A stretch of 64,000 nucleotides of DNA from Glaucostegus cemiculus. Its lineage: Eukaryota. The stretch spans positions 20,336,001-20,400,000 of the forward strand of contig CDPCPM010000016.1 of NCBI GenBank assembly GCA_976551045.1, given 5' to 3'. A program made the position numbers and the translations under genes. Shown piece after piece: positions 7,936 through 61,905 of this stretch. Position 1 is the stretch's first letter. Every line of letters begins with the position of its first letter. The notes beneath the pieces are model-generated. The model saw only the letters and a program-made list of their open reading frames with translations, did no database searches and had not been told where the DNA came from.

Positions 7936-8088
7936 GATGCGATAGTGGTGTTTAAGATGCTGTTAAAGAGAGGGAATGGAGAGATATGGATCATGTACAG
8001 GCAGAAGAGTATTAGTTTAATTTGGCATCATGTTCGGCATAGACATTGTGGGCCGAAGGGCCTGTTCCTGTTCTGCACTGTTCTATGT
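7936..8088 (+). mobile_element. CR1 LINE 3' end fragment
   Basis: GGGCCGAAGGGCCTGTT..CTGTTCTATGT 3'UTR/tail shared with the CR1 ends at about 26170 and 55050. Confidence 0.75.
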
Positions 8089-10194
8089 AAAATCATTTTG
8101 GGCCTCACAGCTTATTCTTTCACTGAATGAGGTGAAGATTTATTCAAAAAGTATTTCAGGAAGTTTATAATACTGTGTGTTGCTGTGACAAATTAAGCTG
8201 ACCTGTCCACAGCTGATCAAACTGTTTATCAGAAATTTAGCAAAATGCTAATCTCTAGTCTTAATCCTAAAGCAGAAAGAGCATCAGGATGATACTTGAT
8301 GTTTTAATAATCCTTTTAAAAGTTATTGGACAGAAGCTTGTTGTGGATGAATGGTCTTTGTTGAACTCAAACCCGATGCTGTGAGGCCCAAAATGATTTT
8401 ACGTAGTTTTGGTTTTGTTTCCATGGCTGAGTCACTTGAAGGGGGTCAATGTCAAAGCCAGGTGTATCTGTCAGGGTGGGCAGTTGGGGGTGGAGGACTA
8501 GAAAGTGAAGAAGTGGGATGAGGTGGGGCGGTAGGTCTGGGCTGGGTGGCAGGTAGGATGGTTCAAATTCATTGGGATTCCGCCAATTGAAATTTTAGAC
8601 TGGTTTCTACTTGAAATGAATCATTTTAAGAAGTAGCTTTAATTTTATTTATAGTCCAAGGAAACAATTTTGAGATGCTACTTTATCAATGTGCTGACAT
8701 TCCACAACCTATATGTAATAACATTACCTATATCCATTTTATAGCCTTATCCATTTTAAACCCCAATGGTTGCAGGCCAGTTTACATAGCTGACAATCTA
8801 ACCATTCCAATAATTGGGTGCTTATCAAATTCACAGATAATTTTACATCCACTTTTTGATTTATTGCCACTTTTCTATTTGGTCCAGACAAAGTCTTCTC
8901 GTTTTCCTCTTTTTGAGGATTTCTGTTTTCTCTTTTGTTCTCGTTGATCTTGTGCTTGTCCCTTCATGTTTATTTTATGTATTTTCTTTCCAAATATTTA
9001 TTGTTAAAACTATTAGTTAAGCAGGTTTCACTAGATGCCTTGATAAATGAATTGCCATCGTGAAATGATCCCACCCAAAACATTTACTTTTTCCCTTCTG
9101 CATATTGACTGACCTGTATATGTTTGCAGCATTTTTTTAAAGGTTCTGTCATTCACATCAGAATAATGCAAAGTTAATTTTAACTTGCTGTCAAGCATAA
9201 GGGACATCCTATCGCACACAGCTGTAAAATCTAACTCCAGAGTTTTAACAGAGTTACCATGTAGTTTGAGCATCTTTCTGAACCATTTATTGAGCAAATA
9301 TTATTAACTTGTTTTTATTAAAGTTAAGCATGAAGTTGTAAGTTATAGTTCTAAATAAGATACAGCTAATTATAAGTGAAGATTGCAAGCAAATACTTTA
9401 TTTTGGGCTTCTGTTGTTCTTTTCCTTGCTGTGACCTTCTGTTTGGCATGGGTAGGAGACATAAGTAAAGATCCGTGGTAAAGGACTGGAAAATCTCCAG
9501 ACATATCAGTCAAAGAGCACTGCAGGCTGACATGGTTGTTAGTGATCAGCTAGTGACCCTACGCCTGTTTCACTGTTAAACCACTGTCTCCACAACACCA
9601 AACCACAATCTACACAGAGGGAGATTTTCTTTTATTTTGCAAATGATGCTTGACTAGAAAGCACAATGCTGTAGACAGGTCAGTGAATGTGTGTACAACT
9701 GTTAGGAGCATGCATGACTCCATTTATGCTGTGGTATTTATTGTGAATGAGCTCTAGCTCCCTTTTTAAAACACATGAGAGACAGCCTGAATTTCAGCTA
9801 TGTGTAAGAATGTGGAGACTGTACAACCAATTTTATTTGTTCTTACTTGAGAGCGCTCAGTTACTGAATACATAGATTGATGTTCAAATGAATTAATAAA
9901 AAGCAGCTTGGAGTAAGTCACACTTTATACATACTGTTTTATAAATTCAATTCAGAATATTAAGACAATAGTCTTTAGTTTACTGTATTGGCAAGGTATA
10001 CAATTCCATTTAATAACTGAATTCAATGCAAATTAATGCAAATTCAGCTTCCCCATATTAATTTTGGATGAAAATAATTATTTTTAAAGTAAAGTTGTTC
10101 TTTAAATGCTTGGAAGTGTGTTCCAGACATGTGACCACAATCATAACTTCTGTTGCAATCCTCCTAGACACAAGCCTTTCGACAACTGAAGCAT

Positions 10195-10395
10195 AGGAAA
10201 TAGAACACAGAACAGTACAGCACAGGACAGGGTCTTCGGCCCACTATGTTGTGCTGAACTAATTATACCAATGGTTCATAATCAGTCTAATCACTCTTCC
10301 CTGCACATTGACCATATCCCTCCCTTCTCTGCATAGTCATGTGCCTATTTCAGAGTCTCTTAAACACTCCTATGCTGTCTGCCTCTACCACTGCC
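10195..10395 (-). mobile_element. CR1 LINE 3' end fragment
   Basis: Reverse complement of a CR1 tail (ACAGAACAGTACAGCACAGG..TTCGGCCC) followed by the 3' ORF end. Confidence 0.7.
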
Positions 10396-10495
10396 CAGGG
10401 GTCGTGGTCTACTCCTGCTCCTCTGATCTGTGGAGTTCCAGGCCAGAGGAGCAGAAGTAGACCACGGCCCCTCAGGCTGTTCCAGCATCCAATAT

Positions 10496-10659
10496 AAACT
10501 TTTTATACTGGCTATCTCCCCTCTATCTTTCAGTCCAGATGAAGGTTTGACCTAACGTGTCGACAGTCCATTTCCCTCCATAGATGCTGCTCAACCTGTT
10601 GAATTTCTACAGCTTTTTGTGAGTTGCTCCAAATTCCAGCATTTGCAGTCTCTTGTGTC
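10496..10659 (+). mobile_element. 5'-truncated PLE terminal fragment
   Basis: Flanked by 8-bp TSD TCCAATAT (10488-10495, 10660-10667); homologous to the reverse complement of the PLE end at 42565-42700 and 42900-42930. Confidence 0.75.
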
Positions 10660-59832: not shown

Positions 59833-60020
59833 AGTACAACTTCCCCACTGAGTCCTGGGATTCAGTGACCACTCAAAGTGCATAAGGAGCATTCCGGGTG
59901 GTATTGAGGCCATGCATTGGGAGTACACAGAGGCGTTGCACAAATTGCAAAAAGAGTGGACCACCTTATAAACTACCCACCAACCCTTCCTATCAGTGGC
60001 ATCTACCCCATCTGTGGAAG

Positions 60021-60157
60021 GGAGGAGATACGAGACTGCAGATGACGGAATCTAGAGCAACAAACAATCTGCTGGAGGAATTCAGCAGGTTGAGCAGCAT
60101 CTCCCTCCACAGATGTTGCTCAACTCGCTGAGTTCTTCCTGCAGATTGTTTGTGGCT
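60021..60157. mobile_element. Inverted PLE terminal insertion with 13-bp TSD
   Basis: TSD CCATCTGTGGAAG at 60008-60020 and 60158-60170; 48-bp imperfect arms 60055-60102 and 60111-60158. Confidence 0.85.
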
Positions 60158-60379
60158 CCATCTGTGGAAGAGCCTGTGTTTCCAATATTGGCCTCATCAG
60201 CCATCTGAGAACTCCCAGAACTTGAGTGGAGTCATCCTCGGCCCTGAGGGATTGTCTAAGAAGAAGAATTTCACTAGCAGGAGAAGTAGTGAATGAAGAA
60301 CATGGATTGAAAAAAAAATGGTGAAGAGGAGAACTTTTTGTATATTTGGGAAGTGTGAAGATGAGGAGAAATGTTTTTA

Positions 60380-61905
60380 ATTTGGTATTAGTATTGGTTT
60401 ATTATTGTCACTTGTATCGAGGTAGAGTGAAAAGCTTGTCTTACAAACTGATCGTACAGGTCAATTCATTACACAGTGCAGTTACATAGTTAATACAAAT
60501 GCATTGAAGTAGTTCAGTGAAAACAGTAACAGTACAGAATAAAGAGTCACAGGTACAGAGAAAGTGCAGTGCAGAAAGGTGCAAGGTCGCACAAGGTAGA
60601 ATGTGAGGTCACAGACCATCTCATTGTATAAGGGAACCGTTCAATAGTCTTATCACAGTGGGGAAGAAGCTGTCTTTAAGTCTGGTGGTGCGTGCCCTCA
60701 GGCACCTGTATCTTCTACCTGATGGAAGAGGAGAGAAGAGAGAATGTCCCGGATGAGTGGGGTCTTTGATTATGCTGGCCGCTACACCAAGACAACAAGA
60801 GGTAAAGACAGAGTCCAAGGAGGGGAGGCTGGTGTCCGTGATGCATTGGGCTGTGTCCTGAACTCTCTGCAGCTTCTTGCAGTCCTGGACAGAGCAGTTG
60901 CCATACCAAGCCGTGATACATCCAGATAGGATGCTTTCTATTGTGCATCGGTAAAAGCTGGTGAGAGTTGAAGGGGACATACCAAATTTCTTCAGCCTCT
61001 TGAGGAAGTAGAGGCGCTGTTGAGCTTTCTTGGCTGTGGCATCTACGTGGTTAGACCAGGACAGACTGTTGGTGATGTTCACACCTAGGAACTTGAAGCT
61101 CTCCACCCTCTCGACCTCAGCACCATTGATGTAGACAGGTGCATGTACACTGCCCCTTTTCCTGAAGTCAATGACCAACTCTTTCGTTTTGTTGACATTG
61201 AGGGAAAGGTTGTTACCATGACACCATTCCACTAAGTTCTCTATCCCCTTCCTGTACTCTGACTCGTTGCTGTTGGAGATATGGCCCACAGTGGTGGTAT
61301 CATCTGCAAACTTATAGATGGAGTTAGAGCAGAATCTGGCCACACAGTCGTGAGTGTATAGGGAGTAGAGTAGAGGGCTGAGGACACAGCCTTGTGGGGC
61401 ACCAGTGTTGAGAATAATTGTGCCGGAGGTATTGCTGCCTATCCTCACTGATTGCGGTCTGCTTGTTAGAAAGTCAAGAATCCAGTTGCAGAGGGAAGAG
61501 CTGAGTCCTAGGTCTTGGAGTTTGGTGACAAGCTTGCTTGGAATTATTGTATTGAAGGCAGAGCTGTAGTTAATAAACAATAGTCAAACATACGTGTCTT
61601 TCTTGTCCAGATGCTCCAGAGATGAGTGTAGGGCCAGGCATCTGCTGTAGACCTGTTTCGCCGGTAGGTGAATTGCAATGGGTCCAGGTTGTCTGGTAGG
61701 CTGGAGTTGACTCCAGCCTACTTCACTTCATGATGGTGGATGTCAGACCCACTGGCCGGTAGTCATTGAGGCATTTTACCTTACTTTTCTTTGGTACTGG
61801 GATGATAGTGGTCTTCTTAAAACAGAACCTGAATTTGAAGCAGGGAGAGATTGAATATGTCCGCAAATACTTCTGCCAGCTGGTCAGCACAAGATCTGAG
61901 CACGC
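60380..61905 (-). mobile_element. Rex1/Babar LINE, 5'-truncated, well preserved
   Basis: IFNLSLLQ and [32 protein letters not shown] upstream; complete 3'UTR with AATAAACCAATACTAATACC tail. Confidence 0.92.
60621..61580 (-). pseudogene. Rex1/Babar reverse transcriptase, 319-aa open remnant
   Basis: [63 protein letters not shown]-terminal part disrupted. Confidence 0.9.

Follow-up and report, generated by a model that had tools for sequence, protein, structure and literature searches.

The nine short local copies in the window, the whole stretch of 64,000 nucleotides analysed here, are very probably inherited and most likely neutral scars of repair or replication mispriming on a local template, of a sort that occurs genome-wide at ~30 per Mb. 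They are germline scars of different ages and not assembly errors, because paralogous transposable element (TE) copies lack the arms and because relatives lack the arm at 8378 but carry that at 10397; the copies are 0–10% diverged from their donors. As single events they are ordinary neutral scars of known kinds, and the useful part of the analysis is the genome-wide census.

Anatomy of the local copies

An earlier sequence-only reading had listed six inverted pairs and three direct copies. All nine were found in the window at the places it gave, except that the copy put at 27601 shifts, its match starting at 27608–27614. Exact inverted arms of at least 19 bp within 500 bp number three in the window and zero in 30 Markov shuffles. 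Arms of at least 12 bp within 50 bp also number three, against a mean of 0.5 and a maximum of 3 in the shuffles; because the shuffles reach the count of the window, the 11–12-bp pairs are not above chance on length alone. No Rfam match was obtained in the window at gathering scores, and Pfam, run on 18 of its 35 long frames, gave four matches, every one of retroelement type. That the copies occur in unrelated TE families held in part: no repeat match in the sampled sequence was obtained for the 8378 acceptor or for either copy at 27608 and at 47811, and 41666 and 61696 sit in two copies of one LINE family (the best matches of 61696 include the loci retrieved for 41666).

Five events (10397, 41666, 52145, 53123 and 61696) are reverse complements within tens of bases, with spacers of 2–18 bp, and comparison with paralogues reveals an ancestral allele lacking the fragment together with a mutation cluster. 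The fragment reaches at least 14 bp, the above-chance length for template-switch fragments, at 10397, 41666 and 52145, and is shorter at 53123 (11) and 61696 (12). The arm at 10397–10425 (minus strand) is a fold-back copy, identical at 27 of 29 positions, of 10444–10472 (plus strand), the probable template, a direction that we infer. It begins where the retroposon fragment 10189–10396 stops matching its family, and after this junction all seven aligned paralogues continue differently. A contig of organism D (X9, record 32) spans 10337–10495 with eight other letters and no gaps, and the arm predates the split from that organism. Within a dead LINE (41666–41736), a 28-bp inverted copy at 41666–41693 of 41709–41736 (28/28 identical) replaces ~7 family bases; it has 2-nt microhomology at both ends, adjoins an 18-bp deletion between two 5-bp repeats, and bears private substitutions common to both arms. 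This arm is absent from 10/10 aligned paralogues, and none of 44 spanning paralogues reaches at least 85% over it.

At a retroposon end (52145–52187), inverted copying has turned ~14 family bases into 17, giving arms at 52145–52163 and 52169–52187 (19/19 identical), again with 2-nt microhomology at both ends. The arm occurs in 0/9 spanning paralogues; the family alignment of this event uses four of its nine rows, the other five being on the wrong strand. The organism D contig (X9, record 32) spans 52114–52347 with no gaps, and the fold-back is probably common to that organism. The event at 53123–53158 is a 15–16-bp insertion in a LINE, upstream of the RT frame, made up of an 11-bp inverted copy (53123–53133/53142–53152, 11/11 identical) and an 8-bp flanking duplication; it is absent from 8/8 aligned rows and carried by none of four spanning paralogues. 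The weakest case of the nine is the perfect 12-bp fold-back at 61696–61721 (61696–61707/61710–61721, 12/12 identical), which is built on a 7-bp quasi-palindrome already present in the family and in which ~26 family bases are replaced by 13. Two of 19 paralogues reach 85% over its arm in gapped alignment, and a 12-base deletion with a few substitutions is an alternative reading of the sequence.

The other four copies (8378, 14552, 27608 and 47811) lie 0.3–1 kb from their donors, and a poly-A/T tail is absent at 8378, 27608 and 47811; the T run that follows the copy at 14552 is the start of its flanking duplication. The segment 8378–8406 (minus strand) is an inverted copy (25–29 bp) of 8083–8111, 266 bp from the donor, with a net gain of ~22 bases; 8087–8111 and 8378–8402 are identical at 25/25 positions, and at 28/29 when extended. 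The donor, 8087–8111 (plus strand), immediately follows the 3' tail of a retroposon fragment (~7935–8090); it is crossed by contigs of related species, for which no indel is listed ahead of 8232. Contigs of relatives ~4.5% diverged, X9 (organism D) and X2 (organism A), omit 19, 2 and 1 bases at 8379, 8401 and 8404, leaving an empty site with a few bases replaced; X1 (organism A) lacks these gap rows at 8379, and its contig has 40 gap letters over 8050–8830. The arm at 8378 is derived and specific to this lineage, and here the direction of copying is shown. The region 8080–8410 is single-copy, with one match in the genome (G000). We rejected a reading of 8083–8406 as a MITE with terminal inverted repeats on the basis of this one match and of the relatives, in which left arm and spacer are present and the right arm alone is missing.

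The interval 14495–14746 (plus strand) contains a 138-bp direct copy (14552–14690) of 15441–15577 (124 identical positions, 13 mismatches, 2 gaps), flanked by a 57-bp duplication (14495–14551/14690–14746, 53/57 identical). Its donor (15441–15577, plus strand) comprises the 3' end of a retroposon fragment and some adjoining flank; the copy takes in ~14 bases of the non-repeat flank and is 89% identical to this local donor, against ~77–81% to remote copies. The direct pair of ~260 bp at 27608–27869 and 28568–28839 (both plus strand, offset 960) aligns over 27612–27863 and 28572–28833 with 240 identities, 12 mismatches and 10 gap bases; its sequence occurs at exactly two places in the genome (G000), and either copy may be the new one. 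At 47794–47858 (plus strand), a 25-bp insertion is copied from 48751–48780 (plus strand), the donor found by alignment 940 bp off; 47811–47840 matches it at 29/30 positions, the junctions show 3-nt and 2-nt microhomology, and the flanking duplication is 20 bp (18/20). Over 6.8 kb, spanning contigs of relatives fall short by 48 and 43 bases, which would fit the absence of a 45-bp insertion, these being totals with the indels unplaced.

The copies are locally templated insertions of the template-switch or end-joining kind, as had been proposed, with 1–3-nt microhomology at their junctions, and the flanking duplications claimed at several copies are seen at 14552 (57 bp), 47811 (20 bp) and 53142 (8 bp). 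Junctions could also be followed into related species by contig comparison, with 10397 carried, 52145 probably carried and the 8378 arm lacking. The most likely common cause is short-lived priming of a DNA end on an incorrect nearby template during break repair or replication. In the short fold-backs, a free 3' end probably folded back on its own strand or switched to the opposite one, primed through 1–2 matching bases, copied 10–28 bases and rejoined through 1–2 bases. In the dispersed copies, a broken end probably invaded DNA 0.3–1 kb away and copied 25–260 bases before re-annealing; staggered ends or re-copying could produce the 8–57-bp flanking duplications. We infer the repair pathway, the enzyme and neutrality, and sequence cannot tell polymerase theta from fork template switching.

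Genome-wide census and rival origins

One run of the same pipeline on a 1.6-Mb sample from other parts of the genome gave 52 events (~32 per Mb), namely 21 fold-backs and 31 dispersed copies, after hand curation in which 19 of 50 dispersed rows were dropped or merged; 800 kb of Markov sequence gave zero fold-backs and zero direct copies at equal scores. Six of seven dispersed pairs tested in the genome (G000) have their only full-length match, or their only match, beside them, and the seventh is the inverted ends of a multi-copy element. The window holds seven events against 2.1–2.6 expected (P 0.007–0.017, for a window chosen for such copies), about three times the mean, and ten 60-kb blocks reach at most five. 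Because the 200-kb flanks, with six events, are at background level, a regional hotspot was ruled out. Having been chosen once its copies had been seen, the window counts as a draw from the upper tail, possibly with a mild local excess, and the suggestion that its number of copies marks something special is not supported, such copies being present genome-wide. Donors lie within 1.4 kb in 29/40 cases (P 3e-9 versus uniform), and the 900–960-bp offset is the genome-wide mode and so not peculiar to the window; a 700–1400-bp hump against 50–700 bp alone (19 versus 10, P 0.08) is not significant. Long flanking duplications were rejected as a general feature, a score of at least 9 occurring in 2/49 pairs against 2% of random sites.

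The origin of these copies can be weighed against three other accounts. Assembly or amplification chimeras are hardly credible: in five cases copy and donor are not identical, 10397 and probably 52145 are present in another species, the original sequence resumes within a few bases at each event, and perfect arms are not in excess (8/15 among the long fold-back arms found beyond the window, where steady build-up would give 5.9). In favour of chimeras, four perfect arms (41666, 52145, 53123 and 61696) lack direct read proof, 52145 having one indirect contig, and the only near-identical run (X7, depth 2.2), which may be the source of the assembly, reaches no further than base 10 of the arm at 8378, short of a 31-letter bridging rule. 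Copying during retrotransposon insertion, in which the reverse transcriptase or the repair of the insertion would turn to a local DNA or RNA template, is unlikely overall and plausible for 10397 alone, which marks a retroposon junction. A retroposon end also adjoins or forms part of the donors of 8378, 14552 and 47811. Of the 31 dispersed copies found beyond the window, 11 have an end no more than 20 bp from a repeat boundary, where 18.6% would be expected at random (P 0.02); however, 20 of the 31 have no repeat boundary nearby, such boundaries arise by themselves from insertions into repeats, and four fold-backs lie inside element bodies. The 8378 copy, moreover, arose later than the retroposon next to it, an element present in relatives without the copy.

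An unusually active or altered repair pathway in the lineage or region, such as high germline use of polymerase theta, is very unlikely. It could account for the threefold excess in the window and for complex events in which a fold-back is combined with a microhomology deletion (41666) or, in one census block, with a dispersed copy. Against it, the flanks are at background, the copies resemble ordinary vertebrate cases in anatomy and donor distance, and no new mechanism is needed under a slow substitution clock.

Scar load per substitution

It is possible, though we hold this tentatively, that the lineage keeps several times more scars per substitution than mammals or teleosts do, through slow substitution and time-dependent break copying; this would add to local mispriming. 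The implied rate of fold-backs is one per 3,400 substitutions (95% interval 2,200–5,500) for arms of at least 14 bp and one per 5,800 (3,500–10,400) for arms of at least 17 bp, against one per 16,600–33,000 computed from human–chimp counts; all 4,778 human–chimp candidates, unfiltered by length, give a primate value of one per 2,800–5,500, equal to that found here. Local copies of ~50 bp or more number roughly 12–15 per Mb here by hand count, and local copies per Mb of TE DNA number 0.62 in human, 0.19 in zebrafish and 0.08 in chicken. When anchored in TEs as by Pace, the count here falls to two clear cases in 0.51 Mb (0.5–14 per Mb; P 0.04 versus the human rate), and both may fail the 80% coverage rule of that study. 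In favour of slow substitution, the epaulette shark, another species, has a mutation rate of 7e-10 per base per generation, the lowest vertebrate rate in its paper. Pipelines differ between this census and the published figures, and repeated correction of old hairpins would inflate the fold-back estimate. Counts for human DNA of perfect inverted repeats broken down by length of arm were not found in the available parts of PMC13155455, PMC12019632 and PMC5737083.

The genome-wide load may thus be 3–10 times higher per substitution than published primate figures, in a comparison that is not like for like, and this higher load would need no unusual repair because a slow substitution clock would explain it. 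We consider it rather doubtful that cartilaginous-fish genomes are an unusually rich archive, with ~30 copies per Mb (some 90,000 per genome) and several to ten times more per substitution than in primates and teleosts. If they are, local repair copying would be a larger share of sequence change in cartilaginous fish, and the 1-kb donor distance would be a real vertebrate-wide property that can be measured without TE anchoring. Were the load truly higher in slow-clock vertebrates, point substitution and time-dependent break repair could be told apart as contributors to germline change.

Comparison with known systems

The 'doublets' reportedly described by Thomas et al. in 2004 are grouped here with repair-mediated duplications. 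The short fold-backs resemble the template-switch four-point model (Loytynoja and Goldman 2017, PMC5453318; Walker et al. 2021, PMC7954356), in which a few bases give way to a reverse-complement copy of adjacent DNA and a perfect inverted repeat results; the types 1-4-3-2 / 3-2-1-4 describe 41666 and 52145, and 53123, with its flanking duplication, fits '4 before 1'. Those cases came from ape alignments, whereas ours come from TE paralogues and contigs of relatives in a likely cartilaginous fish, and our load per substitution may be higher, although the comparison is not like for like. Templated insertions of snap-back synthesis-dependent microhomology-mediated end joining (SD-MMEJ) and polymerase theta (Khodaverdian et al. 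2017, PMC5728401) appear to share with the short fold-backs a motif of at least 4 bp near the junction and primer and microhomology repeats of at least 1 bp. Read by eye, 53123, 52145 and 61696 fit SD-MMEJ, 41666 extends past 30 bp, and the dispersed copies do not fit, their donors at 0.3–1 kb exceeding its 30-bp range. SD-MMEJ was defined at induced breaks in fly embryos, whereas our cases are known from sequence alone.

The dispersed copies are closest to the repair-mediated duplications of Pace, Sen, Batzer and Feschotte (2009, PMC2671141), two-copy pieces of 50–290 bp with a donor within a few kb, mostly at ~1 kb, with microhomology and, in a minority, flanking duplication. Ours likewise form two-copy pairs with a donor 50 bp to 5 kb off (14552 being closer to its local donor than to remote copies, and 47811 as compared with a 1.9-Mb sample only), with an empty site at 8378 and junction microhomology at 47811. 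The copies at 14552 and 27608 reach 50 bp, the detection limit of that study, while two window cases, 8378 (25–29) and 47811 (25–30), are shorter, and most acceptors here lie outside recognised TEs. The 57-bp flanking duplication at 14552 exceeds the 4–21 nt of human cases (PMC2671141) and counts against our preferred explanation. Cartilaginous fish are absent from the table of Pace et al. (PMC2671141), in which study the human donor distance peaks at 1.2 kb, close to the clustering below 1.4 kb seen here. This clustering arises without the TE anchoring that Pace et al. feared might have caused their peak (PMC2671141), which those authors were unable to disentangle from their method. One genome holding tens of thousands of such copies would make it possible to test directly what sets the donor distance of ~1 kb from the break.

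Templated copies within the window

The sequence-only reading had claimed nine templated insertions in unrelated TE families, and all nine features were found. Three inverted arms of at least 19 bp were present in the window and none in 30 shuffles, which is far above chance; arms of 11 and 12 bp fall within chance on length alone. At 41666, a 28-bp inverted copy stands in place of approximately 7 family bases, with 2 matching bases at each end and an adjoining 18-bp deletion between two 5-bp repeats; the arm was in 0 of 44 spanning paralogues, and the template was local because both arms bear substitutions private to this copy. 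At 52145, approximately 14 family bases became 17 in an alignment with four usable paralogue rows, and none of nine spanning paralogues held the arm. An 11-bp inverted copy together with a flanking duplication of 8 bp makes up the 15-16-bp insertion at 53142, the second arm of the fold-back at 53123, and none of four spanning paralogues had this arm. The case of 61710, the second arm of the fold-back at 61696, is weak, because a 7-bp quasi-palindrome pre-exists in the family and 2 of 19 paralogues are near the arm. The arm at 10397 is located at the end of a retroposon fragment. The diversity of TE families thus held in part: 41666 and 61696 share one LINE family, and three of the events are in sequence that is not a recognised repeat.

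About one-third of the window is repeats matched elsewhere in the sample, and Pfam domains, all retroelement-type, occurred in 4 of the 18 long window frames scanned. The repeats present suggest a shark or ray. Frame and Pfam scans identified open reverse-transcriptase frames in LINE fragments at 53337-54896 (+ strand, 519 codons) and 60621-61583 (- strand, 320 codons). Putative short fold-backs outside recognised repeats were also noticed at 11900-11938 (16 bp at 94%, spacer 7), 24964-24988 (11 bp, spacer 3) and 55781-55809 (11 bp, spacer 7).

For the dispersed copies, a second insertion of the same element would be the rival explanation at 14552-14690. This segment, flanked by a 57-bp duplication, copies 15441-15577 together with the donor's non-repeat flank, which rules out a second insertion and establishes a local copy. 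At 47811, a 25-bp copy with its donor 940 bp away lies within a 20-bp duplication, and the 27608/28568 pair was found at exactly two places in a genome-wide search of the 2.85-Gb assembly. The start of the 28568 copy also recurs in inverted form, as a perfect 17-bp match (28474-28490/28571-28587, 80-bp spacer) that perhaps belongs to the same event as this 260-bp pair.

Age and direction in related species

In no public sequencing run were as many as half the window's words present; relatives matched best, with contigs 4.3-4.7% diverged from the window. Contigs from organism D (run X9) and organism A (run X2), spanning 8050/8076-10222, lack 22 bases at 8379-8404; therefore, the right arm at 8378 is the new copy and originated after the split. 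The contig of X1, another organism A run, has 40 gap letters over 8050-8830, but its gap rows are unlike those of X2 and X9. The X9 contig is gap-free across 10337-10495, so that 10397 is real and older; it is also gap-free across 52114-52347, though the window allele is approximately 3 bases longer than the family, and 52145 is therefore probably common to organism D. At 44154-44374, a contig of organism C (run X8), a more distant relative, differs at 4 of 221 bases, compared with approximately 7-8% in most other listed X8 pieces, and this segment may be a conserved element.

Genome-wide background

A single pipeline was applied to the window and to a background of 80 10-kb pieces at round coordinates, ten 60-kb blocks and 200 kb of window flanks. 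Outside the window, curation of the 71 rows took out 13 tandem arrays and 4 pairs of repeats, and 2 rows were merged; in the window, 1 CA-rich row of 9 was removed and 1 merged, and 53123 and 61696 fell under the threshold and outside the count. Fold-backs in the background then numbered 21, or 13 per Mb, and there were 31 dispersed copies, or 19 per Mb, at distances of 36-1400 bp. The corresponding counts in the window were 3 and 4, against 2.1-2.6 expected in total (P 0.007-0.017 for the sum; 0.05 and 0.04 for the separate classes), an upper-tail position expected of a window chosen for looking rich. Each of the ten blocks had between 1 and 5 events, and the 200 kb of flanks had 6. The window has a high count without being exceptional, and its number by itself does not support the suggestion of unusual repair. 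An 800-kb Markov sequence at the same scores yielded no fold-backs or direct copies, inverted pairs being covered only to 300 bp. A genome-wide search with seven dispersed pairs showed six to be local and two-copy, one of these containing a short repeat; the seventh was a multi-copy element end. Distances of up to 1.4 kb accounted for 29 of the 40 pairs of at least 45 bp, with 13 pairs falling at 700-1050 bp; the 1.4-2.0 kb range was empty.

Other structures were noticed in the sample. A complex scar on contig C12 (~8018900-8020910; pieces L179-L180) contains a 250-bp direct copy ~1.27 kb from its donor, short inverted pieces at the junction and, 500 bp further on, a 68-bp fold-back that is perfect and has a 7-bp spacer. 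Within a repeat (L204:2899-3006; contig C169, 15022899), an insertion of 107 bp comprises inverted 46-bp and direct 20-bp pieces, both from ~0.65-0.75 kb away, and is thus a two-donor chimera. A ~1.58-kb element (piece L105, 6079-7655) has 152-bp inverted ends; its end has 1,820 genome candidates at 93-95% identity, and it therefore likely belongs to a DNA transposon family of fairly recent origin. In the window, 14363-14509 and 60055-60158 hold inverted pairs (82-85% complementary) of the end of an abundant repeat. Rfam gave no match for them; this configuration, also present elsewhere in the sample, resembles Penelope-type inverted termini.

Mechanism and comparison with other vertebrates

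The copying is local, with 1-3 nt junction matches, mixed ages and a spread over the genome. From established pathways, the fold-backs would arise by snap-back or strand-switch synthesis, and the dispersed copies by strand invasion and then re-annealing. The features are real scars, old and young, of two known mutation classes, now observed in a new lineage. No paper on such scars in cartilaginous fishes was found by title or abstract start, in a search whose coverage excludes most subscription journals; further literature consulted comprises six papers' worth of background (PMC7954356, PMC5728401, PMC13155455, PMC12019632, PMC5737083, PMC10561070).

A decay model from fold-back density gives 1 event per 3,400 substitutions for arms of at least 14 bp, or 5,800 for at least 17 bp. 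Human-chimp counts correspond to 1 per 16,600-33,000 substitutions for fragments of at least 14 bp making an inverted repeat, or to 1 per 2,800-5,500 with all 4,778 candidates (PMC5453318). Per Mb of TE DNA, Pace et al. give 0.62 duplications for human, 0.19 for zebrafish and 0.08 for chicken (PMC2671141); our TE-anchored search of 134 interrupted repeats in 0.51 Mb gave 2 clear cases (0.5-14 per Mb), both of which may fail the 80% rule of Pace et al. On these figures, a lineage-wide excess over other vertebrates is only a possible, rather doubtful, although testable lead. The mutation rate of the epaulette shark is low (PMC10587355), and, if the excess exists, a low rate of this kind would be its simplest cause.
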